From: a virus
Length of the DNA: 38,384 nt
Strand: one strand, 5' to 3'
Virus record (IMG/VR): IMGVR_UViG_3300045988_055146
Span: 1-38,384 of that record
A model generated the notes under the pieces. It did no database searches and had not been told where the DNA came from. It was given only the letters and a program-made list of their open reading frames with translations. A program made the position numbers and the translations under genes. Positions 3,405 to 31,091 of this stretch are shown piece by piece (position 1 is the stretch's first letter; the number at the start of each line of letters is the position of its first letter).

Positions 3405-3432
3405 AGAGCCGGGGCCTTGTGGCTCCGGCTCT
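3405..3432. terminator. Perfect GC-rich hairpin between convergent integrase and late-cassette genes (terminator; attP core is an alternative)
   Basis: AGAGCCGGGGCC-TTGT-GGCTCCGGCTCT forms a 12-bp stem with one G-U pair. On the minus strand it is followed by TTGACCGTTTTATTTTCTT. Confidence 0.6.
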
Positions 3433-3434
3433 CC

Positions 3435-3467
3435 GTTTCAATGCTCTACTATGCAGTCATAGTAGAC
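3435..3467 (-). repeat. CRISPR-repeat-like stem-loop ending in ATTGAAAC (second, degenerate solitary unit)
   Basis: The minus strand reads GT-CTACTATG-ACTG-CATAGTAG-AGC-ATTGAAAC. This is a perfect 8-bp stem with a tetraloop and the 8-nt ATTGAAAC tail. The TGA inside the tail is the stop codon of CDS 3438-3992, and the 3405-3432 hairpin follows 2 nt later. Confidence 0.4.
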
Positions 3468-12100: not shown

Positions 12101-12334
12101 TACATCCCATTCCCCGGCAGTCAGGTTGAGCGCGTCGTCCTCGGTGATCCTGTCGTCCTCGTCCAGCGCTATGTCGTACACGGTCTCGCCCTTGCGGAAG
12201 TGCGCCCAGCGTGTGTACCCGTCCCACTCATCCCCGATGAAGTGGAACTGCGCCGTCAGAAATTTCAGGCTGTCCGCCGCTATCACCGGCGTGTAGTATT
12301 TCAGGCTCTGGCCTGCAACATAAAATTCAAGCAT
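9119..12334 (-). CDS. Tail fibre / baseplate protein: BppU-like N-terminus, collagen-like Gly-X-Y repeats, calcineurin-like metallophosphoesterase domain, C-terminal beta-sandwich (carbohydrate-binding-like)
   Basis: The N-terminus MLEFYVAGQSLKYYTPVIAADSLKFLTAQFHF...WDVYMTG is BppU-like. Collagen-like repeats are GPQGDPGTAG and GPPGTPGSKGDPGKS (about 11560-11740). Phosphoesterase motifs are MADAHLG, HVGDYSTG, CPGNHDD, FSHAAL and HGHEHRY (about 9790-10600). Confidence 0.85.
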   Translation of the reverse strand: MLEFYVAGQSLKYYTPVIAADSLKFLTAQFHFIGDEWDGYTRWAHFRKGETVYDIALDEDDRITEDDALNLTAGEWDVYMTGTKDTARLTTVVVIMTVKESGLIDAPLHVIPQSVAEQIDAKAAQAMAVANAVKAAADAGKFNGKSFEVKGYYDDLDALAEAVPNPTAGESYGIGTAAPYHIYIWDGANGKWVDNGTIQGPQGDPGTAGTTYTPHVDDNGNLSWTNDGGEENPETKNIKGPPGTPGSKGDPGKSAYDAAKDAGYTGTEATFYAAVAMMPSHHERHLPDGADPITIKEGNIDANAVSAEKIKDKNVTAAKLADECKNIIRESVALAASAFVADSTVDGARYKAELAITGCTAAMLPIIAWTAAQAEELDVKRIQSAAGKIIIYSADAPGADLTIPTVALISPIGTGSSGTANYSGGDDTGALTAAAIIAALGYTPAKTTDIPTVPTEDISANTEARHSHANKAVLDKITGLLTASTVDNPGNTLDLVTYQALMVKLNAAAEQVMQMIPTELKNPNALKIKVDGTETAYDGSEAKTVEISTASAGDDTPDYVLTAADALAQKIVGHIGADNIVFAVMADAHLGYYTDTANAAGKQAGQALKRLNERCALDFIAHVGDYSTGAWNTTSADALEDNADYQLLIGSKYPGRAIWCPGNHDDAPYQATANRLTQMQMYAAIGRKNLASGGCVPGNACYGYMDFPGPRLRVIYLDTHDHRSWGTTQIGSGADNPYLNADNISAAQLQYLADTALDFSGVSNPAEWSILVFSHAALNGTGSYTDPVSGTVHPSNTANAAALLKAYATKQSGSITHGSTVSYDFSAITPAQIIACIHGHEHRYANETVGGAFLSVCCPNILNGRERASADGNTYTKTAGTANGTSFCVFSINRAAKKIYVDHYGPGIDREFDYTVIDPSAPSYTNQLPNATDTDGSIYNSTGWAPNYRLNSAGAAESSTGLYLTGFIPVSLGDVVRLKNVTWQYGVTSGIASNNQRISFYNASKTHLGQTNGTGAGGTLAGVKDDNNIWTQFKVQSFSGVTLDNVAYFRLCCAGLSEDSIITVNEEVETS

Positions 12335-15015: not shown

Positions 15016-16158
15016 TCAGTTTGCGTCGTCTTCTGCACTGAACGAAGATACGCTCATTACGCGCAGCATACGCTCAGGGTAAAGGATAGTCGCGCCGTTG
15101 GTTTCGAGCTTGTAGCCTATGGTGCTGAACTGATCCAGCGGGCCGCCGATCTCGCTCTTGTCGTGCACTATCATCTCCATTGCGCCGCCCTCCGGGTCTA
15201 TGATGCCGAACGCCTCTTTGCCGAAGAAGTACGTTGCATAGGTTCTTCCGCGCTCCTTGTTGACGTACTCATCGTCCTGCGCAGCGCTCGTGCCCTTCAC
15301 GCCAAGCACAGGTGCAAACACGTCCTCAACAAAGCGCACGCCGCCTATCTCGCCGATCTCGCCGTTGAACAGCGCCTCGGGTGCAGCGTACTTGTGGGCG
15401 TCTACCCACTCCGGGTCTCTGCGCAGATCGTACAGCACCGACGGGTGAGCCACTGCATAGTAGTACCCGTTGATGCGCGGCACGCGGTTCTTCTTCATGA
15501 TGGTTACGATCTTGTCTATCATTGCCACCGTGAGCAGTGCCCAGCCGTCCGGGGTGCTCGTGCCTCCGGTTGCTGTCGTGGTTCCGCCCGCGCCCATCGT
15601 CTTGCAGGATGTCGGAGTGCTCAGTACCTTGCGCGTCTCCTTGTCTATGTTGTCGCAGTATACAACGTTCGTGCCGACGAGCAGCGCGTCTCGCGTCAGC
15701 TTCTCCTGCGTCTCCGCGGCGGATGCGCCCATCTCCTCGGTTGCCGCAAGGATTATCGGGTCATACGCGCGCAGCTCCAGCTTGTCGGTCACGGCTGTGT
15801 ACGTGCCGTACTGGTCTACCGTGCCGGTCACCTTGCTCATGCCGAGCTTCTGCCCTGTGGGTATCACGCCCTCAATGAGCTTGTCCGCACGCGCGAAGGT
15901 GTTGAACTTTCTCCACTCCACCTTGCCTTCGTGGTTTTTGGGCAGAGACTGACGCTTGCCGAACTGCGCATAGTACAGCTCTACACGCGCGTTCTCCAGC
16001 AGCTCCGTGTCGTAGAACGTCTTCAGTTCCCCTGTAAGATCGTTCGTGCCGGAGAACGCTGTGGTTTCTCCTGTGTATGCGTTCACATAGTTGCCGGTCG
16101 CGTTGACGAGTGTACCGGCGTCTGCAAAGTACTGCAACCAACTGTATTTGTTAATCAT
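15016..16158 (-). CDS. Major capsid protein (HK97-fold inferred)
   Basis: The ORF track gives 15016-16224, but the ATG at 16158 is preceded by AAGGAGAGG. The product is 380 aa and lies directly after the scaffold gene. The N-terminus MINKYSWLQYFADAG carries a Prp-type cleavage motif. Confidence 0.85.
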   Translation of the reverse strand: MINKYSWLQYFADAGTLVNATGNYVNAYTGETTAFSGTNDLTGELKTFYDTELLENARVELYYAQFGKRQSLPKNHEGKVEWRKFNTFARADKLIEGVIPTGQKLGMSKVTGTVDQYGTYTAVTDKLELRAYDPIILAATEEMGASAAETQEKLTRDALLVGTNVVYCDNIDKETRKVLSTPTSCKTMGAGGTTTATGGTSTPDGWALLTVAMIDKIVTIMKKNRVPRINGYYYAVAHPSVLYDLRRDPEWVDAHKYAAPEALFNGEIGEIGGVRFVEDVFAPVLGVKGTSAAQDDEYVNKERGRTYATYFFGKEAFGIIDPEGGAMEMIVHDKSEIGGPLDQFSTIGYKLETNGATILYPERMLRVMSVSSFSAEDDAN

Positions 16159-16189
16159 GTTTTCCTCTCCTTTTCCGAGAGGATGTGTG

Positions 16190-17242
16190 CTACCAGTCCA
16201 CGGGCAGCTTCTCTCCTCTCGCATCCGCCGCGTATATGCGGCGTTTCAGTTCTTCTCTTTCTGCTTTGCTCCTCTGTGCCGGGGGTACGCGGGTTATCGA
16301 CACTGCAATGCCCGCTCCGTTTTCCTTGGGCCGTGCCTGTCCCGCTCTCACTGCGGCCTGCGCAGCGGCCATTGCCTGCTGCTGCATTGCCTGCTTTTGT
16401 GCTGCGGCGATCTCCTTGCGGTGTACGGCGCGGTATGCGTCCTCCACCGACAGCATGCCCGGCTGCGTCAGCTTCACGAACATGTCGTTCTGCATCTCGG
16501 TTTCAAGGCTGAAGTCCGGGAACTCGGCTCTCAGCGCTTCCGCCTGCTGGTTGAGCCGTGCTATGTGGTCACGCATTATCTGCTGCTGGAAGCTCATCTT
16601 CTGCTGCTCACGCAGAGATTCCAGCTCCTGCTCGCGCTGACTCAGCACCTTTGCCGTCTTCACGTCCACGCCCATCTCTGCCGCCTTCACCTCGTAGAGG
16701 CTGTCGTCGTCAACGATAGCGTGGGCCAGGCCCTCATAGTCTCCGGCGCTCGTGCCGTACTTCTTTGCCAGCATCTCCAGCGCGGGTGTGAGCTTGGCCA
16801 TGCTCTCCTCCCGTGCGTTCGTCTTGGCAAAGCGCTTGCTTATGATCCCGCTCACCTGAGAATCAAATGCCGCTTTGTACTCCGGGTCTTTCAGCAGGTC
16901 TTCCCATTTGGGCTTGGCCTGTGAGGCCGCGGGCTTTTCCGCGCCGTCTCCCTCGTCTCCGCCGCTGTCTGCGGGGGCTGTCTCAGGCGGCTGCGCCGCT
17001 TCCGTTTTCAGCCCGCGCCGCTGCATGGATGCGGCGAATCTTCTTGCCTTGTCCTTGGGTACGCCCAGCTTCTCCAGAGTACCTGCTGTGTCCTGCTGCC
17101 CGGCGACGGCAGCCTGCTGCCTAGTCCCTTGAGGGGCGACGGCAGCGCCATCAACGCCCGCTGCGGCTCCTCCGTCTCCGCTGCCGTCTCCTGCAGGTGC
17201 GCCGTCGGCGAAGTACTGAAGCCAATAAGTTTTGCTGTTCAT
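16190..17242 (-). CDS. Scaffolding protein
   Basis: 350 aa, Ala/Gln/Glu-rich and helical, located immediately upstream of the capsid gene. The N-terminus MNSKTYWLQYFADGA shares the WLQYFAD motif with the capsid protein. Confidence 0.75.
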   Translation of the reverse strand: MNSKTYWLQYFADGAPAGDGSGDGGAAAGVDGAAVAPQGTRQQAAVAGQQDTAGTLEKLGVPKDKARRFAASMQRRGLKTEAAQPPETAPADSGGDEGDGAEKPAASQAKPKWEDLLKDPEYKAAFDSQVSGIISKRFAKTNAREESMAKLTPALEMLAKKYGTSAGDYEGLAHAIVDDDSLYEVKAAEMGVDVKTAKVLSQREQELESLREQQKMSFQQQIMRDHIARLNQQAEALRAEFPDFSLETEMQNDMFVKLTQPGMLSVEDAYRAVHRKEIAAAQKQAMQQQAMAAAQAAVRAGQARPKENGAGIAVSITRVPPAQRSKAEREELKRRIYAADARGEKLPVDW

Positions 17243-17434: not shown

Positions 17435-20400
17435 TCAGCTGTTCCACGGCGCTTCTTCAAGTTTCGCCCAGCTCTTTGTTCCCACGTCGTCGAAGTAGAC
17501 CATTGCTATCTTGTCTTTCTGCTCCGGCGTGAGGCTGAGACTGTCGATGTACGCCCACAGCTTGTCTCTCTTGGAGTTTGCTATGACCTTGCCCTTGCTG
17601 TTGTAGTCCGACTTGAACGTGCTCGCGCTGTGTCCGTTGATTATGTTCCAGTAGTCCAGCTTGCTTATCCCGCTCCCGGTTACATAGCTGTCGTAGCGCT
17701 GCGCCTGCTTGCCGGTGATCGACTTCATCGCCTCTTCGCCGCCTATCCATTCGTAGCGGTACGCCGTGTTCGCTGCTTCCTCCGGCGTGTCTCCGGCGTA
17801 CTTGATGCGGTACTCGTATACTTCCTCCTTGCTTATCCTTCCCGCATTGTATGCGTCGCGTATGCCGGTGAAGCTGTCGCCGCCCGCGTTTATGCCGGTG
17901 TCCTTTTCAAACTTCCACTGCATCACCTTGGCCTTTGCCAGCTCTTTGTTTGCTGCGATCTCCGCCGCCGTCTGCCTGGTCGTGTCGCCGTAGCCGTACT
18001 TTGCCTGAAGCTCCAGCGCCCGGCTTTCCGATATGTTGCCGTTGATAAACTCGTCGTCGATACTGCCGTATGCTATGCCCGTCACCTTTTCGCATGTCCA
18101 CTGCTCCACGGCTACTTCCGCGTCGCGCTCTGCTTTGCCGCCGTACTTTTGCAGCAGCGCCAGCGCCTCCTGCTTGGATATTGTGGCTTTCTCCGTGTCG
18201 CTGCCCTGATACCAGTCGCGTACCTGATTCTTCACGTTATTCTGTATCTTGCTCTTGAACACTCCGTGCTCTGTCAGCTCCTGCATCAGCGCGTCGTAGC
18301 TCTCCGTGTCCCCGGCCTTGACGGCGGCGTACAGATCTTCCAGCTTGTCGTTGCTGCTTCCGTCGCCGTTCCACTCGTTGATTATCCAGAACGCCTGGTC
18401 TGCGTCGTCCGCCACGCCCTGCTTCACAAGCTCCGCCATCGCATCCTCGTCCGTCATAAAGCCGTTGAGATAGCTGCTCTTGATTGCCGCCCTCGTCGTC
18501 GGCCTGTAGCTCTGCACGGTCACGCCGGAGAACGGCGCTACCACCGTGTTGTACAGCGCCACGGCGTCGCGCATTGCGTTGTAGAACGGCAGCCCGCTCA
18601 GCTGTGACACGGCTCTCAGGTTGGCTGCCAGCACTCCGTATGCCGTCAACTGCCCGTTGTAGCTCACGGCCTTCTCGCCGTCCTTTGCTCCCAGCGCCAT
18701 GGACAGCATCTTCATGTCTATGTCCCACGCTTTTTTCAGGTTCGTTATTGCCTGCATGTCCATGCGGCTCACGTCCTCCCCGCGGAAGATAGCGGCAATA
18801 TCCTTTATCACGGGTATCTTGTTGTAGATCAGCAGCTCCTGCATGAGGTTGCCTTCCATCCAGTTTCCTTCTTCGCCGAAGAGCGCCTGCTTCAGCTTCT
18901 GTGCGAAGGTCTCGTAGTCGTCGTCATCTCTCACCGCATCCCACAGCGACGCGGCCAGCACCGTTGCCGCCGAGGATGCGACGAACACCGCCATTGATTT
19001 TACTATCGCGCCCTTGTTCTTCTGCCATGCTATGGCCGCTTTCTGCTTGCTGCTGCCTCCCGCCTTGCGCATGTCCGCCCTGTAGTCTGCGTATGCGTTC
19101 AGCAGTATGTTGTAGCTCAGTGTCGGCTCCGCCATGAATGAGGTCGTGATGTTCGCCAGTATGCCCTGGTTGCGCATGTTGTGGCTCCTCGTGATCGTCG
19201 CGTCCACCACCTGCGTCTTGAGTATGACCTCGCGGAATCTCTCTGCCGTCGCCTTGCACAGCTCGTCTCCGCGCAGCTTCGTCCGGTCTGCCGTCTCCAT
19301 CCTGCACGCGCGCCACAGCGCCGCCCATGTCACGGCGTCGCCCTTCTGCGCGAAGAACATTGCCTTCTCCTTTGCCACGTCTGCAAGGCTCTCGTCGTGC
19401 ATGATCTGGCTGCGCATGCTCCTGCCTATGTCCGTGCTCACGAAGCCCAGCCCCTTCCACGTCGCAATGCCGCTGTACCTGTTCATCTCCTCACTGCTCT
19501 GCTTCCCGCTGCCGGGCTTGAGTGCCGCCGCCAGATACTTCGCGTCTATCTCCTGCGCTGCTCTCACGTATGCCGTCGGCTGCTGTATCGCCACTCGCAG
19601 GTTTGCGCCCACGGCTGCCGCCTTGTAGTTGGATACCATCCGCTTTGTCACGGCATCGCTCCTGCTCGTGCCGCCCTCGTGCTTGCCGTTCAGGTCCTTC
19701 AGCAGCGTCACCACGTACTTTTGCGCTGCCCGTCCGTATGCCGTCTCCACGCTGCGCTGCACCGTGTCCGTGTACACAAGGCCGTTGACGTTCGTCCGCT
19801 CCTTGTAGTTGTACCACTTGAGTGCGTCCAGTATCGGCAGGGTCAGTGCGTTGTACTTTGCCATGTCGCTTGAGTGATCGGTGAATACCTCGAATATGTC
19901 GCTCACCACCAGTGCGTTGTTCGCGTTGATGGTCAGCGCCTTTGTCGCGCTCAGGTTCAGCAGGCGGAACATGTCATTTGCCTTTGCGTCCGGGTCTACC
20001 GCCGGGCGGTCGTTGCTGTCCGTCTGGATAGGGAAGTAGTTCTTCTCGCCGAAGCCGCGGTACCCGAAGCGCTTCATGCTCACCTCGTTGCCCCACTCGC
20101 CGCAGGTGTCCACCATGAAATGCTGAAGCGCGTCCGCAACTTCTCTCTGCCTCTCCGTCAGCATGCCGTCCAGCATCTCAAGGTCTGCGCTGTTCGGCTT
20201 GAAGTGTTCCGTCTGCACTATTTCGTTGAGCCCCTTGCCTATGTTGCCCACGCGCAGGCCACCGCCGTACAGATGCCCTATGGCCTGTGCTCTCTTGCGC
20301 AGGCAGTGCAGGCTCATCAGCTGCGCCGTCGTTATCGTGAACTTGTCTCCGTTCTCAAACTTTACTTCGTGCGTCTCCTCGCGCCATGTCCGCGCCTCCT

Positions 20401-23400
20401 TCGCCGTGTACAGCCCCTCCGTGAAGTCTATGATCTTCTTTGCGTTGAACGCCATCTGTTCCCAGCCCTTTGATATTCCCTCGAAGATAGCCTTGCCGCC
20501 CTCTCCGAAGCGCTGGAACGCATAGAACGGCGTGGTGTTGTCCCAGAAGCCGAACGCCGCAAGCCCTGTCTTTGCCGCCTTGCCCTGCTTGCCGAGCTTG
20601 CCCAGCTCCTCTATGCTGTTCTGCGACGCCTGCTGCACGCTCCTGTACCGGCTGTTCGCCATCAGCTGGTTTGTCTTTTTCACAGACGTGGACAGCACCG
20701 TCAGCAGCGTGTCCAGATGCCGCAGCTCTTCCGCCGTCATGTCGTTCACGGTGAATGTCTTTCCGGTCTCAGCGAACTTGTTTGCTATGCGTATGAAGTC
20801 CTTGACCTGCTCCATCATGTCCGAGGGCATGTCAATGTACACGTCCAGCGCACTCTCCGTGTCCGCACCGCTCATGTACTTCTGCTGGTTCTCAAGCACA
20901 TCCCGCAGCGCTGAGAGCTTCGATGCAAACTTCCTGTCGTTCGCCGTCTCCTCTCCGCCGCGCAGCTGCTGCCTTGACGTGAAGTCTATAGTCGTCAGGA
21001 AGTCGCCCACGGTTTTCTTCAGCACCTCCGGCACATGCTCCTTCGCACTGTTGTTGAGCATCCAGTCCGTCAGCTGTGCCGCCGTCGCGGTCACGCTGTC
21101 CTTGTACTTCTTTATGCCGGCGTTCTCCCTGCGGCGCTGCTGGGCGTTCTGCATCATCTGCTGGTAGTAGTTTCTTGTCTGCTCTACCTTCTCCCACTTG
21201 GCCACCTTCTCCTTTGCCACGGCCTCCTGCTTGCGCGCCACGCCCTCCTGATACACCTGCTGTATGCGTTCCTGCATCCGGCTCTTCATGTCGTTGTAGC
21301 GCGTGCGCTCTTCGGCCACGGCCTTGTTCATCCGGTCTCTCGCACGGTCCGCCGCAGTCTTTGCCGTCTGGCGTATCTCGTCTGAGAGCATCGTGTCCAG
21401 TATGTCCTGCGCCACGGTCTCGCGCATCTCGCCCATGTAGTTTTCAAACGGGTTCCCGCGCACCGGCTGCCATGCCCGTTCCATGTCCGCTATGTGGAAC
21501 AGCATGTCGCTCTGGCTCGTGATGGTTGACGGGAACGCGCCCTCGCCGAACTTCTCCTGCAGCTCCATCCACGCCGTGTCTATCGGCAGTCCGTCCTTGC
21601 CGAAGCGGATGCGCCTGTGCTCCCGCTTCCAGCCCTCCGGCAGGTCCAGCATCTCCCGCTCGTTTATCTTCAGCTTGTTGCTCTTGAGGTAGTCCAGCAG
21701 CTCGCGCCGCGCGTCCTCCATCCCGCTCTCTATCTCTGCCTCCGAGCCGGACAGTATGTGATCCGCTATTGCTGCCGCCCAGTCTTTCAGCTCTGCATAG
21801 CTCAGCTCCTGCCCGTCCGTCTGCACTATGTAGTCGCCCATGCGCTTGAGTTCTTCCTTCACGGTGTCCTCTGCGTCCTTGTTGTGCAGCTCCTCGGTCA
21901 GCCGCCGTGCAAGCTTGTCCGTGTCTGTCTTGCGCACAGTGGCCTCCTTCGTCGTCCGCGTCTGTCCCTTCCAGTATTCCGCGCGCCGCCGAAGCTCTTC
22001 GTTCTGCCTCCGCAGCTCTGCGTAGCTTTCCTGCCTGCCGCGCCGCTCGTCCGCCGTGTCGTCCGCCGCCACGTCGCGCATGGAGTAGCGGAACTGCCCA
22101 AGGTCTGACGGCTGCGCCGGTACGGTGCCATTGTCGAAGTACTCGTTGATGTCGTTGATTATTCTCTTTGAGTACGTGCGCTTTGGGTATTCTATGCTGA
22201 CCACCGTGTCGCCGTTGGCGTTGTCAATGTCCAGTGTCACTTCTCCTCTGAAGCTGGATATGTATCTGTCCAATACGTCGAGCTGCTTTGCATTCGGTTT
22301 TGTGCTGAGGTTTATGCCGCCGCTCTCCGGCGATAGCCTAATATTTCCCGCCTGCATAAACTGCACCATGCCGCCGCTGTAGCTGCCGTCGCCGTAGTCT
22401 CCGTCAAAGGCGTCAGTTATATCCCTGTGGTCTACAGTTCTATAGCCGCCCGGCGCGCCCTCGTGCCGCCCGCTCATGTCCAGCAGTTTGCCATCTCTCA
22501 GCAGATACCCGGCCTCTGCTATCTTGTATGTCGTGCCGAAATACTTTTCTGCCGTCTTGACGTCCGCCGCATCATCCCGCTCGCGCATGGAAAATTTGGT
22601 ATTGCCATTTTCATTGCCTCGTGATATACTAACCATAGAAGTGTCACTGAGGAATTTAGACTTTGGGGTTTTCCCGTATGAGCTAATGATGTCCTCAGTG
22701 GCATTTCTTATTTTTGTTATGTCCTTGAATCTGCGTCCGTTCTTATTGTTTTCAATGTTTATTACTCCGTCGAAGTATTCATCCCCAACTTTGAAGGTCA
22801 CGTCAAAATAAGTAAATCCGCCAGTTGCATTCTTGTGAACATGTCCATCACGTCCGTCAGCGGCAGTCCTGTAATTTCTCCCGGCCTCTATCAGATTGTC
22901 TAGTTCAGGAGCGGCACGCATCTTTGCTTCTTTTACCTGTTCGTCTTTGATAAACCTTGACGGATATGCATATTCATTTGCTGATGCGTTATTAACGAAA
23001 GCTCTATTTGAGCTTCCCACAACTTTGCCAGCAAAGCGGCTCTTTATTATTTCTCTTGCTTTGCTGGTCATCTCTTCCTGTGTCAGCCCATTAAATGCGT
23101 CTTGATCTGTTTTGACATCAACATATTTAGTCCCGTCCTCAAACTCCCTAAGTGAATACTTTGCATTCTTGCTCACGGTCTCATTCCCGCTCGCCGTCTC
23201 CGCGTTCCTCACGGCGCCGGCAAGGGCGCTGTCCCATATCTGCTGCAGCTCGTCCGCATACTTCATCATGGCCTTTGCCTCTGCGTGCCGCGCCTCCACT
23301 CCCGTGAAAGCCTTCCGCAGCTTCTCCGCAAAGTTTGCTATCCATTCCCGGATCTGTTCATACAGGCCCGGGTTTTCTTTTGCCATGATCTCCGGCAGCT

Positions 23401-26320
23401 GCGTGTCCTCCAGCATCATCTCGCAGCTGTCCGCTATCACTTCCTCCACTGCCTCGTCCATGGAAAGCAGTCCGTTCTCGCGCGCTGCCTTCTGCTCTGC
23501 CAGCGCCTCTATGTCTGCGCCGTCCTCTATCAGGTGCCGCGTCACGAAGTCGCGCAGCTGTGCGTAGCCCTCCGCGTTGTTCTCCCGGATGTAGTGCGTC
23601 AGCTCATGCGCCGCCGTCAGCAGCACGGCGGATTCCTCTGAGGTTCTGTTTGCCCCTGCGTTCACGTCAAGGTACATTGTCCCGTTGCGCATGAAGCCGT
23701 TGGCTCCCTTGTACCTTCCGGTCATGTCCGCCTCTGACTGGTAGAATACAACGTCCGTCCCCGTGATCTTTGCCAGCGTCTTTATCACGTCCAGCTCTGT
23801 GCTGCTCACCATGTCCTCGCTCGCAGCTTTGTATCTCTCTCCGCCGTAGTCCACGTCCTGCCCGAAGTACACCTTGCCCTCGCCGCGCTGCCGGGCTGCG
23901 CTGTTCTGTATGCGCGCATCCTTGCTGCTCCTGCCGGTGTTGAATGCTTTCGTGAACTGCTCCTGCGTCAGCACGCTTCCCGCGCCGCCGTTCCTGCGGC
24001 TGCTCTCATATGCCTGCTGCGCTGTCACTGCCGTCTGCTTGCCGTACATGTCCGCCGCCGTGGTGTATGCCCGCACGTAGGTGTCGAAGTCCCCGCCGTT
24101 GTCCTCCGGCCTGTAGCTCAGCAGCATCTCGTCGCCGTATGCGTAGGGGCGCACGCTGTCCAGCATTCTCTGCGTCTCCGCGTCAAAGGTCAGCTTGTCC
24201 TCCGTCACGTCCCGTGTTCTCCCGTCCGGCATCTGCACCCTCGCTGTGAACTTGCCGCCGTCCTGCACTATGGCCTTTATCTGTCCTACCTCGCCCCTGT
24301 ATGCGGCCTCCAGTATTCCGTCCGGCCGGCGTGTGTTCTGCGTGCCCTGCGGTCTCTCCGTGGCCTGCTGTACCTGCTGTGCCGTCTGCTGTACCGGCAA
24401 AGTCCCGTCCTCCAGCACGGCGTCGATGGCCCACACTCTATCTGCCCCATACTTTTCTTCGAGCTCTTTGCGCCGGGCGTCGTATCGTTTCCATTCCGCG
24501 GGATCTTCTTCTATCTGCTGCCCCGTGCGCCCGTCGAATCTTCCCCTTGGGACATCCGGCCTCATGCCTTTAAGCTCCACCATGTCCCTGAAGAACTCAG
24601 GTTCATTTTTTTCTATGTCCCTGTATAGCTCCTGCGGGGTCTGCCGCGCCCATTCCGGTGTCTCTTCCTGCGTGCCCTGCGGGTACTGCGTGCCCTGCGC
24701 CTCCTGTGTCTGCGCCTCCTCCTGTACCGGCGTCCGTCTCCTCGGTGTCTGCGCGCTCTCAATCCCGCTCTCCACGCGGTCAGCCGCCGGACCTCCGTGT
24801 ACCTCGGCCACGCTGTCGCGGTATCTGCGCTGCGCTCTGCCGTTCTCTATGGCATACGCGCCCGCGGTCGCCGCAGTCTGCCCGCCGCCCAGCACGGCAG
24901 ACACCACCGCTGCGCCTATCGCTTCTTCTTTCATGCGGTTCGGGTTTATCATTGCGCCCTCATCTGTGGTGGAGTACAGCGGCACATCCTTGTATACAGA
25001 CTTGAGCCCGCTCTCGCCTATGCCCTGTATGATCTCTTCGCTCATCTCCGAGGGGATGCCCTTTACTATTTGCATCAGTGCGCTGTTGTCTGCACGTTCA
25101 AGGGCGGCGCGGATATTCTTCGGCAGCTTCTGCAAGCCGCCCCACATATCATCCGTGCCGCCTATCTCCGTCGTTGCATTGTATGCCGCATTCAGTATCG
25201 CGTATAGTGACGCCTGCTCTTCGCTTGCCCCATCCTCCAGCGCGTTCTCGTAGCTATCGCCCACAACGCTCATGAACGTAAATCCCCAGTTTGGGTCTGC
25301 TGCCATGTCCGCTGTCGCCTTGAGTATCGGCGTCACTATCTGTGCCGCCCTGCTGCTGTTCGCCAGCGTTGACGCCGCTTGCAGTGCCTCCGTTGTTGCC
25401 TGCGCCGCTGTCGATGTTCCGCCGGACAACAGCGCCATCATCGACATGGGCAGCGAGTTCATCACCATTTCGGTATACTTGCCGACTGTCTGTGCTGCCT
25501 TGCTGTCGCTTGCCGCCCGCGCTGCTTCCTCGTGCTGCAAGTTTATTCTGCGGTTGCCTTCCTCTATGTACTGCCGCAGAAAATTGTCGTCCCCGTATGT
25601 GTAGTTTGGGTTTATCACTCGCCCCGCCTTGGTCACAAGCCCTGCCGCATCGTCGGCAAGGCTGGGGCTTATGTCGTTTACCGTCACTCCGGCAAGCGTC
25701 CGCAGCTCATCTGCGAAGCCTCCGAATGCCCAGTCTAATCCCTTTGCTATCGCGTTGTCCGCGCTTGTCAGTCCCGCTCGTGTGCTCCACTTCACTGTGT
25801 CCCACCAGTCCGTCGGTGTCCACAGCGTGCCGCCCGCTTCCTCCACGCGCTTCTTGTACGCCTCCACAAGCGCGTCTGCCTCGTCCATCTTGTTCTTGGC
25901 CGTGGTATAGTCCGCCGTGCCCCTGCCTTTACCTGCGGCCTCTACGGCGCGGCGTGCCTTGTTGTAGTCGATGTACGCCTGCTTGTACTTCTGGTTGAGG
26001 TCTGCTATCTCTGCTTCTTTCCGCCGCTCCGCGCCGAGGTCTACGCCCCGCCACCCGTGTTCCTCAAGATATGCCTGCCGGGTAGGGCTTACCTTGCCGC
26101 GTCCCTTGTCGTTGTTTACGATGCCGTTCCACTTGTTGCTCTGCTTGTCCAGGTAGTCCTGCCTCGTCCACGACTGCCCGCGGCTGTCCTTGAAAGTCCC
26201 GCTGCTCTGTGTGCTCGTACTGCTTCCTGTATACTCCTCGCCTCTGGCGCGGGCTATGTTCCGCTCACGCTCTTCATGCACACGCGCTATGTTCTGTTCC
26301 CGCTCTTCTCTTGTAGACAT
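17435..26320 (-). CDS. Giant (2,961-aa) multidomain virion / internal head protein with zincin-like HExxH motif; polyvalent-protein-like
   Basis: Single uninterrupted ORF with an AAGGAGG RBS, lying between the portal/Prp genes and the scaffold. The HExxH motif is AAHELTHYI (23594-23608). It has hydrophobic and Ala-rich N-terminal segments, several coiled coils, and a C-terminal set of about 45-aa helical repeats (EALALLQKYGG..., RALELQAKYGYG..., EVYEYRIKYAG...). Confidence 0.9.
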   Translation of the reverse strand: MSTREEREQNIARVHEERERNIARARGEEYTGSSTSTQSSGTFKDSRGQSWTRQDYLDKQSNKWNGIVNNDKGRGKVSPTRQAYLEEHGWRGVDLGAERRKEAEIADLNQKYKQAYIDYNKARRAVEAAGKGRGTADYTTAKNKMDEADALVEAYKKRVEEAGGTLWTPTDWWDTVKWSTRAGLTSADNAIAKGLDWAFGGFADELRTLAGVTVNDISPSLADDAAGLVTKAGRVINPNYTYGDDNFLRQYIEEGNRRINLQHEEAARAASDSKAAQTVGKYTEMVMNSLPMSMMALLSGGTSTAAQATTEALQAASTLANSSRAAQIVTPILKATADMAADPNWGFTFMSVVGDSYENALEDGASEEQASLYAILNAAYNATTEIGGTDDMWGGLQKLPKNIRAALERADNSALMQIVKGIPSEMSEEIIQGIGESGLKSVYKDVPLYSTTDEGAMINPNRMKEEAIGAAVVSAVLGGGQTAATAGAYAIENGRAQRRYRDSVAEVHGGPAADRVESGIESAQTPRRRTPVQEEAQTQEAQGTQYPQGTQEETPEWARQTPQELYRDIEKNEPEFFRDMVELKGMRPDVPRGRFDGRTGQQIEEDPAEWKRYDARRKELEEKYGADRVWAIDAVLEDGTLPVQQTAQQVQQATERPQGTQNTRRPDGILEAAYRGEVGQIKAIVQDGGKFTARVQMPDGRTRDVTEDKLTFDAETQRMLDSVRPYAYGDEMLLSYRPEDNGGDFDTYVRAYTTAADMYGKQTAVTAQQAYESSRRNGGAGSVLTQEQFTKAFNTGRSSKDARIQNSAARQRGEGKVYFGQDVDYGGERYKAASEDMVSSTELDVIKTLAKITGTDVVFYQSEADMTGRYKGANGFMRNGTMYLDVNAGANRTSEESAVLLTAAHELTHYIRENNAEGYAQLRDFVTRHLIEDGADIEALAEQKAARENGLLSMDEAVEEVIADSCEMMLEDTQLPEIMAKENPGLYEQIREWIANFAEKLRKAFTGVEARHAEAKAMMKYADELQQIWDSALAGAVRNAETASGNETVSKNAKYSLREFEDGTKYVDVKTDQDAFNGLTQEEMTSKAREIIKSRFAGKVVGSSNRAFVNNASANEYAYPSRFIKDEQVKEAKMRAAPELDNLIEAGRNYRTAADGRDGHVHKNATGGFTYFDVTFKVGDEYFDGVINIENNKNGRRFKDITKIRNATEDIISSYGKTPKSKFLSDTSMVSISRGNENGNTKFSMRERDDAADVKTAEKYFGTTYKIAEAGYLLRDGKLLDMSGRHEGAPGGYRTVDHRDITDAFDGDYGDGSYSGGMVQFMQAGNIRLSPESGGINLSTKPNAKQLDVLDRYISSFRGEVTLDIDNANGDTVVSIEYPKRTYSKRIINDINEYFDNGTVPAQPSDLGQFRYSMRDVAADDTADERRGRQESYAELRRQNEELRRRAEYWKGQTRTTKEATVRKTDTDKLARRLTEELHNKDAEDTVKEELKRMGDYIVQTDGQELSYAELKDWAAAIADHILSGSEAEIESGMEDARRELLDYLKSNKLKINEREMLDLPEGWKREHRRIRFGKDGLPIDTAWMELQEKFGEGAFPSTITSQSDMLFHIADMERAWQPVRGNPFENYMGEMRETVAQDILDTMLSDEIRQTAKTAADRARDRMNKAVAEERTRYNDMKSRMQERIQQVYQEGVARKQEAVAKEKVAKWEKVEQTRNYYQQMMQNAQQRRRENAGIKKYKDSVTATAAQLTDWMLNNSAKEHVPEVLKKTVGDFLTTIDFTSRQQLRGGEETANDRKFASKLSALRDVLENQQKYMSGADTESALDVYIDMPSDMMEQVKDFIRIANKFAETGKTFTVNDMTAEELRHLDTLLTVLSTSVKKTNQLMANSRYRSVQQASQNSIEELGKLGKQGKAAKTGLAAFGFWDNTTPFYAFQRFGEGGKAIFEGISKGWEQMAFNAKKIIDFTEGLYTAKEARTWREETHEVKFENGDKFTITTAQLMSLHCLRKRAQAIGHLYGGGLRVGNIGKGLNEIVQTEHFKPNSADLEMLDGMLTERQREVADALQHFMVDTCGEWGNEVSMKRFGYRGFGEKNYFPIQTDSNDRPAVDPDAKANDMFRLLNLSATKALTINANNALVVSDIFEVFTDHSSDMAKYNALTLPILDALKWYNYKERTNVNGLVYTDTVQRSVETAYGRAAQKYVVTLLKDLNGKHEGGTSRSDAVTKRMVSNYKAAAVGANLRVAIQQPTAYVRAAQEIDAKYLAAALKPGSGKQSSEEMNRYSGIATWKGLGFVSTDIGRSMRSQIMHDESLADVAKEKAMFFAQKGDAVTWAALWRACRMETADRTKLRGDELCKATAERFREVILKTQVVDATITRSHNMRNQGILANITTSFMAEPTLSYNILLNAYADYRADMRKAGGSSKQKAAIAWQKNKGAIVKSMAVFVASSAATVLAASLWDAVRDDDDYETFAQKLKQALFGEEGNWMEGNLMQELLIYNKIPVIKDIAAIFRGEDVSRMDMQAITNLKKAWDIDMKMLSMALGAKDGEKAVSYNGQLTAYGVLAANLRAVSQLSGLPFYNAMRDAVALYNTVVAPFSGVTVQSYRPTTRAAIKSSYLNGFMTDEDAMAELVKQGVADDADQAFWIINEWNGDGSSNDKLEDLYAAVKAGDTESYDALMQELTEHGVFKSKIQNNVKNQVRDWYQGSDTEKATISKQEALALLQKYGGKAERDAEVAVEQWTCEKVTGIAYGSIDDEFINGNISESRALELQAKYGYGDTTRQTAAEIAANKELAKAKVMQWKFEKDTGINAGGDSFTGIRDAYNAGRISKEEVYEYRIKYAGDTPEEAANTAYRYEWIGGEEAMKSITGKQAQRYDSYVTGSGISKLDYWNIINGHSASTFKSDYNSKGKVIANSKRDKLWAYIDSLSLTPEQKDKIAMVYFDDVGTKSWAKLEEAPWNS

Positions 26321-26331: not shown

Positions 26332-27408
26332 TTACTTCTCAAACAATCCCCACGGGTCGCGCCCTGTGACGCGGTAGTAGTTCTCGCGGCTCACGTACGC
26401 ATGGTTCCCCGGATCCCAGCCGCCGGAGAGTGCGCTGCCTCCGCCGCTGCCCGGCACATCGTAGCCGCGCGGGTACTCTCCCGTTATCTCGTAGTACTGG
26501 TCTGCCGTTATCGTGCCGTTGAGGTAGGCGGGCAGGGGATTAGCCGTTGCCCATGTCATGGCCATCTGCTTTGCCGCGTCCTCGCCGTACAGCTCTGCGT
26601 AGCCGGAGAAGTCTCCATAGTTGCCGAGGTCTGACGCCATCTGCTGCGCCCGCTCTGCGTCGAGCGCCTGATCGTATCTGTAGTCGCTCAGTGCGTCGCG
26701 GTACTGGTTGTACTCCGTGCTCTGCCTGTCCGCGGCCAGACTGTACTGCTGCCTGAGCGCGTCGCCCTCGGCTGAATACATGTCGTATGCCTGTCCGTAC
26801 AGCTCCGGCAGCACGTCGTTCAGGCGCGACAGGTAAGCGTCGTACTGCTGCTGTCCTACGGCGCTGCCGTAGCTGCTGCCGTAGCCTCCTGTCAGCGCCG
26901 CCGTCTGACCCATGCTGTCGCGCATGGCCTGCTTGCCCTGCTGCATGTATGATTCCTTGTACTGGTTGTACAGCGGGTCCGCGCTGTAGTCGTACTTGAA
27001 CGGCTCCCGGTTCGTGAGCTTGTTGTATATCTCGCTGATCTCCTCGTCGTATGAGGAGGCATACGTCGGCGCTTTGTTTTCCGCCTGCTTGAGCGCGGCC
27101 ATTGCCTTGTCGTATGCCGCGCTCCTGCCCGCGCTGGGCGTCGTCCTCGTCGCCGGGGTAACTGTCTGCTGCGCACCCTGTGCGGGCGTCGTGTTCTGCG
27201 AGCCCTGCGGGTTCTGTGCAGGCGTCGTGTCCTGTGCTGTGCTCTGCGTGCCCTGCGTAGTCTGCGTGCTCTGCGCTGCCGGGGTCACGGTCTGCGTAGG
27301 CAGCGTGCCCTGTGCGGGCTGCGTGCTCTGCGTGGCAGGTGTCCCGCTCTGAGCACTCTGCGTGCCCTGCACCGCCGTTCTCTTCTTCTCTTCCTGTCCT
27401 ACTGCCAT
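26332..27408 (-). CDS. Hypothetical virion-module protein with Thr/Gln-rich repetitive N-terminus
   Basis: 358-aa ORF with a GAGGAGGAAAAGG RBS. The N-terminal about 90 aa is TQ/PAQ low-complexity sequence (QGTQSAQSGTPATQSTQPAQGTLPTQT...). The C-terminal part is Tyr/Asp/Gln-rich. Confidence 0.8.
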   Translation of the reverse strand: MAVGQEEKKRTAVQGTQSAQSGTPATQSTQPAQGTLPTQTVTPAAQSTQTTQGTQSTAQDTTPAQNPQGSQNTTPAQGAQQTVTPATRTTPSAGRSAAYDKAMAALKQAENKAPTYASSYDEEISEIYNKLTNREPFKYDYSADPLYNQYKESYMQQGKQAMRDSMGQTAALTGGYGSSYGSAVGQQQYDAYLSRLNDVLPELYGQAYDMYSAEGDALRQQYSLAADRQSTEYNQYRDALSDYRYDQALDAERAQQMASDLGNYGDFSGYAELYGEDAAKQMAMTWATANPLPAYLNGTITADQYYEITGEYPRGYDVPGSGGGSALSGGWDPGNHAYVSRENYYRVTGRDPWGLFEK

Positions 27409-27421: not shown

Positions 27422-27733
27422 TCATATCCTGTATGCCTGCACGTTCTCCGGGAACTGCGCCGCCATCAGCTCGTAGCCACGGAATATCGTCCGCATCATC
27501 TCGCGGCACCGCGCCGTGTGCTTCTTCCCCGGGCGGCACTGCACTCTCACATAGCCGTCCCTGTGCAGCAGCGTCGGCTGCATGCCCGCCGCCTCATCCT
27601 TTGCCGAGGCCTCCAGCGTCCGCATCAGTATCGTCAGCGCCGCGCATACAAGGTCTGCCCCCGGCGCTCCCGCTCCTGCGTGTCCGCTTATCTCCATCGT
27701 GTACTCGCTCTCGTCATACGTCACTCTCGTCAT
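27422..27733 (-). CDS. prp: Prp-like cysteine protease (ribosomal-processing protease / DUF464 family homologue)
   Basis: 103 aa. MEISGHAGAGAPGADLVCAALTIL carries the GHAG His and the (I/V)VCAA Cys dyad spacing typical of Prp/YsxB. The gene starts 3 nt after the portal stop. Confidence 0.75.
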   Translation of the reverse strand: MTRVTYDESEYTMEISGHAGAGAPGADLVCAALTILMRTLEASAKDEAAGMQPTLLHRDGYVRVQCRPGKKHTARCREMMRTIFRGYELMAAQFPENVQAYRI

Positions 27734-27736: not shown

Positions 27737-29650
27737 TCATCCCTCCGGCTGTGACGCTGCCTGGCTCCTCGCCCTCGCGTTCTGCGTGCGGCTGTCCTCG
27801 CCCGTGTCCGGCGCAAGGGATATGTCCTCCGCGCTGCCCGTGCCGCCTGCGCCGCCTCCCGTAAACGCTGCCGCCAGCGCCTCCACCTTGTCCGGCTCGT
27901 ACTTCTGCGTCATTGCCAGCGCGTACTGCTGCACCTGCGCCAGCTTCTGGTACATCGTCCCGTTGTAGTTTATCATCTGCATCACGGTGTCCTTGTTGTC
28001 GAAGTCCATCATGTAGCAGCAGGCGAGCGCCTGATCTGTCTGCTGCGGGTTGAAGAAGCCGAGGTTGTAGAACTGCAGCGCCATCTCATTTTGCGTGATC
28101 CTGCTGTAGCTTGACCGCTTCGCCGGGCTCACCTTAATGTCGAACTCCGGCAGGCGCACCAGCATTATGTTCCCGCTCTGCTCCTCGTGCGCCTTGATGT
28201 TTGCGTTGCTGTAGCGCACGAAGGTCTCCGCGCCCAGCTGCCCCGTGATGCGGAACTGTCTCGGCATGTCGTAGAACTGCCGGATAAGCTCGATGCACAG
28301 GTTGACTATGCGTGAGTATGCCCTGTAGCTTGCGCGGCTGCTGTCCCTGCTGCCCTTGCCGCTCGCCTCCTGTAATGCTGCTATGGCTGCCGCTGCCGTC
28401 ACACCGGAGGATATAACTCCGTTGCTTGCCTCCGTGTTCCCGCTCGTCTCTCGCAGCTCGTTTATCATGCTCGTGCGCACGTCCAGATAGTTCCCGCTCA
28501 GTGCGTTGTATTGGATCGGCGTCAGACTGTCCTTGCCCAGGTTGCCGTTGACATGCACGAGGGGATTGTTGAGATCAAGAAACTCCTCCTCGTTTATGCT
28601 GCCGTCGATGCGGGAGAAGTACCGCGGCATCGCGCCCACCATCGTGTTCTTGATGAACGCCGTCTGCATCACGTCTATCTGCGTCTGCACGTTCTGGCAC
28701 AGGTCTATGTATCCGTAGCCGCATGGGCTGCCCTCGATCGGAAACAGCGTGTCGAACACGAAGGGATACAGGCCGTGGTCGTAGAGCGGCGCGCCCTCGT
28801 TTTCACTGCTGTACAGGATCTCGTCGCCCACGTACTTGCAGTAGTGCAGCAGGGTCTTGCCCCCGTCGTGCCTCTTGTAGTACACGTCTATCACCACGCT
28901 CTTGCCGTCCGTGGGTATCGTGTCGTCGCTCTTGAATTTGTTGGGCACAAAGGTCATTGCGTTGAGCTTGCCGTGCAGCTGCGGGTACATGCTCTCCAGT
29001 ACCTCGTTGTCCATCATGGCCGTGTGGAAAAAGTACTTGCTCCTCTGTATGTCCGTGCATCCCGGCTCCCAGAATACGTTGAGTATGTCCACCCGGTCTA
29101 TCGCTATGTCGCCCAGTCCGTTGAGCTTGTCCGCATCCCAGTACACCTTGTAGATGCCCGTCCCTGTCTTGAGCTTCTGCCATGCGCAGTCGCTGTAGGT
29201 CTCCTCAAAATGGTTGGCCTCCAGCACCACGGGGATTATCTTTGACAGCATCCCCGCCTCCTTCGCGTCGTCCGGCTCGCGGGCAAGGATGTTAGGCTCC
29301 GGGTATGCCTCCGTCGTGTCCGCGTGCTTTGCCACTATCACGTTGTGCAGCCACCCGCTCTTGGCTTTGAAACCGTTCAGCCCCTCTGACTGCTTCTCGA
29401 TCTCTACCTGATTGCGCAGCTTCCACCAGTTTTCCGCCTCGATGGCGCGGCGGTCTACGCTTGCCTTGCCTGCCTTGTACTTGTTCAGGGTGAGGTTAAA
29501 CTTCCGCAGCGTCTCCGTGTTGACCGGCGCCTCGTGCAGCCCCGGCGTCTGATCCTCTGGTGCTGGTGGTACCGTGGGTACTGCGGGCACCCCCATATCC
29601 ATCCCCGGCATTGCTCCCGGTATCCCGCTCAGTCTCCTTGTCTCGTCCAT
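27737..29650 (-). CDS. Portal protein
   Basis: 637-aa ORF directly downstream of TerL with an AAGGAGGAG RBS. Its size and position, and its Gly/Ala and acidic C-terminal tail, are typical of SPP1 gp6-type portals. Confidence 0.85.
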   Translation of the reverse strand: MDETRRLSGIPGAMPGMDMGVPAVPTVPPAPEDQTPGLHEAPVNTETLRKFNLTLNKYKAGKASVDRRAIEAENWWKLRNQVEIEKQSEGLNGFKAKSGWLHNVIVAKHADTTEAYPEPNILAREPDDAKEAGMLSKIIPVVLEANHFEETYSDCAWQKLKTGTGIYKVYWDADKLNGLGDIAIDRVDILNVFWEPGCTDIQRSKYFFHTAMMDNEVLESMYPQLHGKLNAMTFVPNKFKSDDTIPTDGKSVVIDVYYKRHDGGKTLLHYCKYVGDEILYSSENEGAPLYDHGLYPFVFDTLFPIEGSPCGYGYIDLCQNVQTQIDVMQTAFIKNTMVGAMPRYFSRIDGSINEEEFLDLNNPLVHVNGNLGKDSLTPIQYNALSGNYLDVRTSMINELRETSGNTEASNGVISSGVTAAAAIAALQEASGKGSRDSSRASYRAYSRIVNLCIELIRQFYDMPRQFRITGQLGAETFVRYSNANIKAHEEQSGNIMLVRLPEFDIKVSPAKRSSYSRITQNEMALQFYNLGFFNPQQTDQALACCYMMDFDNKDTVMQMINYNGTMYQKLAQVQQYALAMTQKYEPDKVEALAAAFTGGGAGGTGSAEDISLAPDTGEDSRTQNARARSQAASQPEG

Positions 29651-29660: not shown

Positions 29661-31091
29661 TTATCTCCGCCTGAATTGGTTCAGCGGATCTATCATGTAC
29701 TCCTTCTTCTCTTCCTTGACGGCCGGCACGATCGGGCGCGACATGCACATGTACCTCCACTCGTCGCATACATGGTCCTCCATCTCCGTGTCCAGATCCT
29801 CCGGCCTGTGCTTTGAGTGCTGCATCAGCGGCACCGTGCGGATAAATGCCCGGCAGTTGTCAAACACATACATCCTCGGGTAGCCCTCGCCGTCAAACTG
29901 CAATCGGTAATGGCACTGCATCCACCCCGGTATGCGCGCGTTGTCTCCGGGTGAGAACCACACCCTGTACTTCGCCGCGGTCTCCGCTATGCTCTCGCCC
30001 CGGCTCGTGTCCCATATGCTTGGGTCTGCCACGCCGTCTATGTGCCGGCCCTTGAGCCACGGGTGCTCCCGCTCTATGCGTGCTATCTCTGCGAACTGTT
30101 TTTCCGGCGTCCAGCGTATGCCCTCGTTGGGTGTGTCCGTGCAGCCGTACAGCTCCAGTATCCTGTACAGTATGCCGTCATAGTCCACCGCCCACCACGC
30201 ACAGGAGAACGGCTTGCCGTACCCGAAGTCATAGCTGCGCAGGATATTCCATCCTCGGCTCTCTCCCGCGCTCAGGTCAAACGCCGGTATCACATGCACC
30301 CAGCGCCGCTGTGCTCTCAGCTCGTCCGGCCCCAGCTCGCAGCCCGCCTCAGCCGCCGCCTTGAGATCCGGCTCCGTCCGGAAGTCGTCAAAAAATGCGC
30401 CCTCGAATATATTCCAGTCGCCGTCCAGCCACGCCGCCCTCTGCTTCGCGGGCAGCGCCTCCAGCTGCTTTATGTATTCCGGCTGTGCCCGCATCAGCGC
30501 TTTGTTGTCCCGCACGCCTGCCTGGATGAAACTGTAGTCCCCGCCGTCCTCGCCGTCCTTGTAGTGCCGGTCGATGAACAGCCGCTTGACCCACTCATGC
30601 CCGATGCCTCCCGGGTTGCAGGTGTAGTACACCCGCTTGGGGAAACCGTTGACGCCGCGCACGCAGGCCGTCAGCTTTTTGATCGTGTCCTCGCTCTGGT
30701 GCGTCGCCTCGTCAACAAAGAGTACGTCGACCTCCAAGCCCTGGAATCTGTCTGCGTCCTTCTCCCGCTCGCAGTAGCGGAAGAGTATCCTGCTCCCGTT
30801 GGGGAACTCTATCTCTTTGCGCTGGTCGTTGTAGCGGGCAGCGGCGTCCGCCGTCCCGCAGCCCAGCATCTCCTTGAGCGGCTTTATGTGGTTGGCGTAC
30901 AGCTCCGGGTAGCTCCGGCGTATTATCATCACATTGATGCCCGGGTAGTACCCGCACATCAGCACTGCCTTGACCCGCACGCCCCAGCTCTTGCCGCCGC
31001 CTCGCGCCCCGCCGTAGCATATGTACTTGTGCCGGTCCCGCAGGAAGAGCCACTGCTTGTCGCTTGGCTCCGGTATTGTCAGCGTCCTCAT
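29661..31091 (-). CDS. terL: Terminase large subunit
   Basis: Walker A is CYGGARGGGKSW and Walker B is VDVLFVDEATH. A C-terminal nuclease-type acidic region is present. The ATG overlaps the TerS stop (ATGA at 31088-31091). Confidence 0.95.
   Translation of the reverse strand: MRTLTIPEPSDKQWLFLRDRHKYICYGGARGGGKSWGVRVKAVLMCGYYPGINVMIIRRSYPELYANHIKPLKEMLGCGTADAAARYNDQRKEIEFPNGSRILFRYCEREKDADRFQGLEVDVLFVDEATHQSEDTIKKLTACVRGVNGFPKRVYYTCNPGGIGHEWVKRLFIDRHYKDGEDGGDYSFIQAGVRDNKALMRAQPEYIKQLEALPAKQRAAWLDGDWNIFEGAFFDDFRTEPDLKAAAEAGCELGPDELRAQRRWVHVIPAFDLSAGESRGWNILRSYDFGYGKPFSCAWWAVDYDGILYRILELYGCTDTPNEGIRWTPEKQFAEIARIEREHPWLKGRHIDGVADPSIWDTSRGESIAETAAKYRVWFSPGDNARIPGWMQCHYRLQFDGEGYPRMYVFDNCRAFIRTVPLMQHSKHRPEDLDTEMEDHVCDEWRYMCMSRPIVPAVKEEKKEYMIDPLNQFRRR

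Follow-up and report, generated by a model that had tools for sequence, protein, structure and literature searches.

What does a protein of 2,961 amino acids (aa) do in the head module of a compact 38-kb phage? The question is raised by IMG/VR record IMGVR_UViG_3300045988_055146, analysed here over its whole length (38,384 nt, positions 1 to 38,384 of the record; hereafter the window), in which one uninterrupted open reading frame (ORF) accounts for 8,886 of the 38,384 nt (23%), in line with the near-quarter of the genome given by an initial annotation of the DNA. This giant protein (hereafter the giant) is read here as a carrier of effector domains that would be incorporated into the procapsid and ejected into the host along with the DNA, a reading from gene context and analogues to which we assign a probability of about 0.7. 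Its predicted membership of a known class, the phage polyvalent proteins, is supported by domain and fold comparisons, and at least six separable modules could be distinguished within this single polypeptide of clear phage context.

Fixed frame and interchangeable cassettes

A search of a 5.8-billion-protein collection returned 120 giant homologues (1,800-4,340 aa), mostly encoded on contigs of 35-45 kb. Comparison with these showed a fixed frame, made up of a conserved N-terminal module (N-module), a zincin-like HExxH...E module and a C-terminal helical backbone of ~1,550 aa that includes a core of ~700 aa, and a slot of interchangeable cassettes between the zincin-like module and the backbone (Table 1). 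In the sibling phage P0001, a 38-kb contig with gene order identical to that of the window, nucleotide identity is 95-97% on both flanks of the slot and absent over nt 3140-4231 of the gene (residues 1047-1411), resuming at RYSMRD (gene nt 4231), the third of three junction motifs that border the cassettes. P0002, with a backbone 92-100% identical to that of the window protein, differs only at residues 1-100, 500-650 and ~1050-1235, and identity becomes near-complete about nine residues upstream of the second motif. P0005 is ~54% identical overall and 84-94% identical across the second cassette, the raised identity beginning at SMRE (motif at residue 1243) and ending just past RYSMRD (1412). 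In these alignments, the cassette exchanges between relatives are shown to break at the junction linkers.

The junction motif, [KR][FY]S-x-R[DE], occurs three times in the giant, against 0.11 occurrences expected from shuffled sequences. All three copies lie in linkers with a predicted local distance difference test score (pLDDT) <50, and they form the borders of the first cassette (1055 and 1243) and of the second (1243 and 1412). Homologues carry the motif at each cassette border, with four copies in P0063, and its frequency across diverse representatives is 17-fold higher in the variable region (0.34 versus 0.02 per 1,000 aa). The three copies in the giant use different codons, which suggests selection on the peptide.

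The first cassette is an A+T-rich block of foreign base composition, confirming the A+T-rich inserted domain of the initial annotation (residues ~1051-1250; GC 0.40-0.44; third-position GC, GC3, ~0.40 versus ~0.8 in the flanks). When the giant was scanned against Pfam by segments, LPD3 was matched over its full profile at residues 1082-1198 (E 1.2e-5; 25.9 bits versus a cut-off of 27); the whole-protein Pfam search gave noise only, and taken from the window protein alone the predicted polyvalent inventory is borderline. Tblastn against 50,697 GenBank phages found no relative of this cassette, and three weak partial matches to the giant as a whole. The inventory of the homologues is wider: among the eight that were scanned, ART-PolyVal, LPD3, LPD23, MuF_C, PBECR3 and PBECR5 were found above threshold in the slot, replacing residues ~1050-1400, and the homologue with LPD23 also has a second zincin-like HExxH segment there (weak DUF6782 match). 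Pfam domains precomputed on homologues include Zeta_toxin, Peptidase_M23 and an SNF2 helicase/methylase array, and disparate enzymatic domains in one polypeptide are a feature of such homologues. Domains of these kinds characterise the polyvalent proteins as a class (Iyer et al. 2017, PMC5512222).

The second cassette, here called domain X, contains the AGYLLRDG segment singled out in the initial annotation, and was modelled as a discrete alpha/beta domain (residues ~1250-1405; pLDDT 94-97) with VDHRDI and GNIR motifs. It has 23 further homologues, none with a Pfam domain. Domain X is also found as stand-alone genes (170-300 aa), several of them on contigs of 39-106 kb with mobile-element character, which suggests that in these other mobile elements the domain acts on its own. 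Some matches on short contigs may be fragments of giant genes; as an explanation of the stand-alone genes this was rejected, several being complete genes inside the 39-106 kb contigs. Two stand-alone domain X genes (L013:10001-10741 and L004:6001-6549) lie among small unannotated genes, the former adjoining a gene for a DUF1281_C protein on a contig that also has IS605 OrfB, helicase and GGDEF/EAL genes. Part of a giant protein (~3,100 aa, annotated 'methyltransferase') of the marine Rhodobacteraceae phage LS06-2018-MD07 (OP947163.1; 42.6 kb; CDS 42499..9155 across the origin), encoded near an 'internal virion protein' gene, is 39% identical to residues 1262-1346 in domain X, which points to travel of the domain between gut and marine phage polyvalent proteins.

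The 'polyvalent-type' assignment of the initial annotation is thus borne out by LPD3 (borderline), by the cargo domains of homologues and, as described below, by fold matches in BFVD and an invariant HExxH signature; domain searches did not show the giant to be a conventional tape-measure or tail protein. In PHROGs it matches PHROG 22978 (unknown function; 3,513-position profile), to which the segment scan adds only family 28077, also of unknown function. NCBIfam gave no match on ten segments, and PDB sequence searches with the giant, the HExxH profile and the full family profile returned designed helical proteins or noise only.

Modules of the frame

The zincin-type motif reported by the initial annotation is HELTH, and it is the centre of a well-defined module. 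In 26 diverse homologues, some with identity as low as 18%, invariance within the module is limited to G875, H905, E906, H909 and E960, a set that includes the HExxH and downstream Glu typical of zincins. The AlphaFold model of residues 800-1420 places in this module a helix (840-853), three strands (856-861, 875-878 and 881-885), the HExxH helix (898-914), two inserted helices and the helix with the invariant Glu (954-969), at pLDDT 85-92, a topology in agreement with the zincin core described in PMC5512222. A homologous HExxH module lies upstream of the core in 104 of 124 long family representatives, separated from it by 584-2,444 aa. Weak matches of single members were to Peptidase_M13, eCIS_core, Peptidase_Mx1, DUF5700 and YgjP-like. 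As the module falls outside Pfam peptidase models and PDB matches, it is called zincin-like by motif and topology, not as a member of a curated family. It is the only part of the giant with a predictable activity, LPD3, domain X and the core being uncharacterised.

The C-terminal core defines the family. Searched without filters by phmmer against 1.84 billion representatives, residues 1900-2620 gave 3,762 clusters (50% identity) at E <= 1e-3, with 2,708 reaching 1e-30; the members are almost all 2,000-4,800 aa long, with the core near the C-terminal end. Its invariant residues are H2016, G2021, G2086, Y2095, P2097, Q2247, D2328, Q2370, F2395, E2398, P2399, N2404, P2503 and G2576, and it has no match in Pfam, NCBIfam or PDB. 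The model of residues 1762-2961 (pLDDT 73.7 overall, 80-94 over much of the core) is nearly all helical, with few hairpins. Foldseek searches of PDB with the backbone model found nothing at E <0.05, the queries being multi-domain and probably of low sensitivity. In BFVD the same model gave 73 matches at E <= 1e-3 (best 8.6e-41), of which the top 50 all derive from large proteins of phages or viral metagenomes, mostly as later fragments of entries that had been split. Their names are mostly uninformative; those that are named include a MuF C-terminal domain protein, Nuclease, PolyVal ART, LPD-containing and Type I restriction enzyme.

Two further features of this region had been described from the letters alone. 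The C-terminal helical repeats are real, aligning with each other in self-hhalign (2714-2842 against 2763-2898; probability 94%, E 1.6e-7), with a period of ~50-55 aa rather than the 45 aa proposed. The 'long coiled coils' did not hold up: a crude heptad scan found one 37-aa stretch, not exceeding shuffled sequences. Residues 1401-1500 are strongly charged (44% K, R, E or D), and long helices were modelled at 1863-1909.

At the other end of the giant, the small duplication noted in the charged N-terminus, EREQNIAR (residue 6) and ERERNIAR (residue 17), was confirmed. It lies in a variable slot (slot 1, residues 1-100), where P0002-P0004 have 22-30% identity to the giant versus >90% past it. 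The N-module that follows has A360, G364, A370, E385, E425, E428 and E429 invariant; it was detected in 40 of 124 long family representatives, and also in proteins of ~2,000 aa that have no other BLAST match to the giant. Slot 2 contains a mini-domain of ~70 aa (residues 560-636), which is mobile, occupying other positions in homologues. The two PQGTQ linkers of the initial annotation are present (residues 547 and 657) and flank this slot of 110 aa. Their coding sequence is a 15-nt direct repeat, CCGCAGGGCACGCAG (24668-24682 and 24338-24352, minus strand), with a third near-copy (AQGTQ) just upstream; the repeat resembles a microhomology joint at which modules are inserted. The 'hydrophobic and Ala-rich segments' stand in so far as the N-module has Ala/Gly-rich stretches, while hydropathy of a transmembrane-like level was found in one window only (residues 2437-2463), within the core.

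Proposed delivery and rival explanations

Packaging and ejection are suggested by a late-gene context conserved in relatives and by two analogues. Relatives keep the order TerL (large terminase), portal, Prp, 358-aa ORF, giant, scaffold, MCP (major head protein), among them an integrated prophage on a 492-kb scaffold. The initial annotation had put the gene between portal/Prp and scaffold, in the slot of MuF-like minor head proteins; the head module and the position are as described, with the 358-aa ORF, which it did not mention, intervening after Prp, and a MuF domain was not detected. The ORFs scanned downstream of the giant (to the lysis genes, plus 1539-2552) gave no match to a tail-tube, sheath or tape-measure family, as that annotation had also found by eye, which makes a short-tailed phage a reasonable reading. 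A monoderm gut bacterium of the Clostridia is the probable host, and a scan of GTDB genomes matched one Clostridia metagenome-assembled genome. As for the analogues, gp47 of the short-tailed phage phi24B is a polyvalent protein of 2,811 aa that mass spectrometry found to be abundant in virions (bioRxiv 10.64898/2026.04.10.717836), and the virion RNA polymerase (vRNAP) of N4 is packaged and injected, its C-terminal part with a zincin being needed for encapsidation.

If the giant is such a carrier, the invariant C-terminal core would target it to the portal or procapsid and/or drive its exit, and a helical architecture rich in repeats would let the polypeptide thread the portal channel. The co-conserved zincin might cut the polypeptide at the junction linkers once it has been ejected (or beforehand), and the freed cassettes could then act separately on host defence or physiology, with cargo changing quickly through cassette exchange, as expected in an arms race. 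Processing of polyvalent proteins by their zincins has been proposed in general terms (Iyer et al. 2017, PMC5512222). The core as loading or exit module and the zincin as an enzyme cutting at the junction motif are the more speculative elements. It is possible, though doubtful, that the giant is in full a self-processing delivery polyprotein, cut by its zincin at ~1055, 1243 and 1412, with the core as an undescribed universal capsid-loading/ejection module and the motif as both cleavage site and exchange joint.

Several observations weigh against delivery and self-processing as set out here. The giant has no known portal-binding or capsid-targeting domain, MuF included (Pfam, segment scan, hhalign with SPP1 gp7). 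The HExxH module matches neither MPTase-PolyVal (Pfam accession presumably PF18818) nor any Pfam peptidase family above threshold, and it has no PDB match by profile or, with a multi-domain query, any significant one by Foldseek. Neither LPD3 nor domain X, the cargo of the window protein, is of known activity. In a distant relative (P0085; 27% identity in the core) the giant gene follows the lysis genes, beside an integrase gene, which makes the post-portal 'MuF slot' a feature of the lineage, not a rule. The junction motif is present in just 25 of 104 diverse representatives and could be merely a favoured recombination joint. The family profile gave no significant hhalign result with phi24B gp47, N4 vRNAP or SPP1 gp7, which are analogies and not relatives.

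Much of the same evidence could be accommodated if the giant were primarily a structural ejectosome or tunnel protein that extends a short tail across the envelope, as T7 gp14/15/16 do, the cassettes being minor passengers and the zincin acting on the cell wall or idle. This explanation overlaps with that of an effector carrier and differs from it in the purpose of the conserved backbone, which is long, almost all alpha-helical and much better conserved than the cargo; the virion module has a short-tailed look, without tube or tape measure, the transmembrane-like helix at 2437-2463 and the Ala/Gly-rich N-module stretches speak for this explanation too, and such a role has been proposed for gp47 by the phi24B authors (bioRxiv 10.64898/2026.04.10.717836). 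It is nevertheless rather unlikely. There is one hydrophobic helix only, Pfam and the segment scan detected no lytic transglycosylase or wall-degrading domain in the giant, and a monoderm Clostridia host, which is the probable one, would leave no periplasm to span. A separate 580-aa protein encoded nearby is the one that matches the 'internal virion protein' PHROG 511, and the Foldseek PDB top 50 held no T7-core, P22 or other phage ejection protein (a full-length multi-domain query, of low sensitivity).

That the giant is made late and left unpackaged, with a role inside the infected cell or the lysogen, for example in superinfection exclusion, as a factor in assembly or as a prophage defence or toxin, would fit the failure to identify a capsid-targeting domain, the relatives in integrated prophages and the possible defensive use by hosts of captured polyvalent proteins (Iyer et al., PMC5512222). 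We consider this improbable, given the conserved head-operon position between portal and scaffold, the near-confinement of the family to phage-like contigs of ~35-45 kb and the physical presence of an analogous protein in phi24B virions. Size would also be compatible with a virion RNA polymerase of the N4/crAss type (3,500 aa for N4 vRNAP; 3,513 positions in PHROG 22978), and domain X has an FDGD string; this string was rejected as an RNA polymerase motif, not being conserved in the domain X alignment. Pfam, PHROGs and NCBIfam gave no match to any RNA-polymerase or tape-measure family, the hhalign comparison with N4 vRNAP fell short of significance, and the gene lies in the head block of a genome with no tail tube or chaperone genes present, leaving a polymerase, tape-measure or tail identity highly improbable. 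The packaged and ejected effector carrier is the reading retained here.

Table 1 Position of the giant gene, its modules and the neighbouring head genes in the window.
Feature	Coordinates	Strand	Basis or context
Giant ORF, 2,961 aa + stop, ATG start	17435-26320	minus	uninterrupted ORF; 120 full-length homologues
Charged N-terminus, variable slot 1, residues 1-100	26021-26320	minus	identity profiles
Conserved N-module, residues 160-540, Ala/Gly-rich, moderately hydrophobic stretches	24701-25843	minus	BLAST mapping, alignment
Variable slot 2, residues 547-661	24338-24682	minus	identity profiles, BLAST mapping
Zincin-like metallopeptidase module, residues 810-1045	23186-23893	minus	alignment and AlphaFold model
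HELTH, residues 905-909 (H905, E906, H909)	23594-23608	minus	invariant in alignment
E960, third ligand candidate	23441-23443	minus	invariant in alignment
Junction motif 1, K-YSLRE (Y1055-E1059)	23144-23158	minus	linker pLDDT <50
A+T-rich cargo cassette 1 (LPD3), residues 1051-1250	22571-23170 (LPD3 match 22727-23077)	minus	base composition, Pfam
Junction motif 2, K-FSMRE (F1243-E1247)	22580-22594	minus	disordered linker
Cargo cassette 2 (domain X), residues 1250-1405	22106-22573	minus	model, homologues
Junction motif 3, R-YSMRD (Y1412-D1416)	22073-22087	minus	linker; nucleotide identity to sibling resumes
Conserved backbone, residues 1415-2961, mostly alpha-helical	17438-22078	minus	PHROG 22978 match, model
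Family-defining core, residues 1900-2620, ~700 aa	18461-20623	minus	alignment, phmmer
Transmembrane-like hydrophobic helix, residues 2437-2463, KD19 1.77	18932-19012	minus	hydropathy; sole such window
Helical repeats, residues 2714-2898, ~50-55 aa, at least 3 units	17627-18181	minus	model, self-hhalign
TerL (large terminase)	29661-31091	minus	head module
Portal, P22/SU10-type	27737-29650	minus	head module
Prp-type cysteine peptidase	27422-27733	minus	head module
358-aa ORF, unannotated, Q/T/P-rich	26332-27408	minus	between Prp and giant
350-aa phrog_13908 protein, scaffold position	16190-17242	minus	head module
MCP (major head protein)	15016-16224	minus	head module

Some features of the neighbouring genes may be added. 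The 358-aa ORF has an N-terminus of long Q/T/P-rich low-complexity sequence with many GTQ-like repeats resembling the linkers of the giant, and a Tyr-rich C-terminal half with only a faint XkdX-like match; relatives keep a counterpart at the same position (355-365 aa). The heptad WLQYFAD is common to the MCP ORF (residues 29-35; 16120-16140, minus strand) and the scaffold-position ORF (residues 7-13; 17204-17224, minus strand). Cut as WLQYF|AD, it presumably resembles the site at which Prp cleaves ribosomal protein L27 and the head proteins of phage 80-alpha, and the phage Prp probably trims both of these proteins near their N-termini, judging from this shared site. Prp was rejected as the processing enzyme of the giant, the site being in MCP and scaffold, not in the giant. 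The MCP ORF as listed may begin too far upstream, as the MCP called in the sibling has 380 aa versus 402 aa. Downstream of MCP are genes for two small proteins, the 580-aa protein with the PHROG 511 match, a 1,071-aa protein (9119-12334, minus strand), a 266-aa protein, endolysin and holin. In the 1,071-aa protein (1,152 aa in the sibling), matches to tail-fibre PHROGs occur together with a calcineurin-like phosphoesterase (Metallophos) domain, which is an uncommon enzymatic component of tail or receptor-binding proteins. In the contig of P0085, an RVT_1 reverse transcriptase gene (L011:215-1243), close to an XkdX-like gene, precedes the giant gene by a few kb and may belong to a diversity-generating retroelement.

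Significance and comparison with known systems

Polyvalent proteins are predicted to be a main route by which phages bring ready-made counter-defence enzymes into the cell, and to our knowledge almost none has been studied experimentally. The class of the giant is already known and the present finding adds a member, so that the gain is incremental, unless a self-processing or loading function is shown. What goes beyond the original description of the class is a C-terminal core family outside curated libraries, exact cassette borders with their junction motif, and near-isogenic cargo variants. The locus thus offers a compact 38-kb phage in which carrier frame, cargo slot and borders are defined, together with natural variants (95-97% identical) that differ only in cargo and provide a ready comparison for cassette function. 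Structural work and cleavage mapping have concrete targets in the core family and the junction motif, which also point to a chassis that might load foreign proteins into phage heads.

Among known systems, MuF proteins fused to effector domains are a route of cargo delivery. The giant resembles MuF/SPP1 gp7 in the position of its gene just after that of the portal, and some of its homologues have MuF_C in the slot; it differs in that Phage_Mu_F was undetected and hhalign with SPP1 gp7 gave a probability of 0.4%. T7 gp14/gp15/gp16 and the P22 ejection proteins, which are helical, are housed inside the heads of short-tailed phages and exit via the portal. The giant has no fold or sequence match to them, lacks a transglycosylase domain and is one polypeptide versus three. 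With N4 vRNAP (gp50) it would share packaging and injection and a comparable layout, gp50 having an N-terminal injection region, cargo in the middle and a C-terminal zincin region for encapsidation, but the cargo of gp50 is an RNA polymerase, and its zincin lies downstream of the cargo, in contrast to the upstream location in the giant.

The similarity to phi24B gp47 is one of kind: gp47 of this Stx phage is also a giant polyvalent protein of a short-tailed phage, with LPD5, LPD1, LPD38 and a MuF-C/metallopeptidase region, and is proposed to be packaged and ejected, its presence in virions having been found by mass spectrometry (bioRxiv 10.64898/2026.04.10.717836). There is no significant sequence or profile similarity between the two, the gp47 gene is at the far end of its genome, not beside the portal gene, and the host is Gram-negative. 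From the polyvalent proteins as described (PMC5512222), the giant departs in an HExxH module unrecognised by MPTase-PolyVal, in the undetected MuF domain, in having no cargo of known activity, and in the conserved backbone that makes up about half of its length, with a ~700-aa core outside Pfam and PDB. It agrees with them in being a giant multidomain polypeptide encoded among the late/virion genes of a portal-terminase phage, in combining a zincin-like HExxH hub with LPD-type domains, and in the ART-PolyVal, PBECR, MuF_C, Zeta toxin, M23 and SNF2/methylase domains carried by its homologues.

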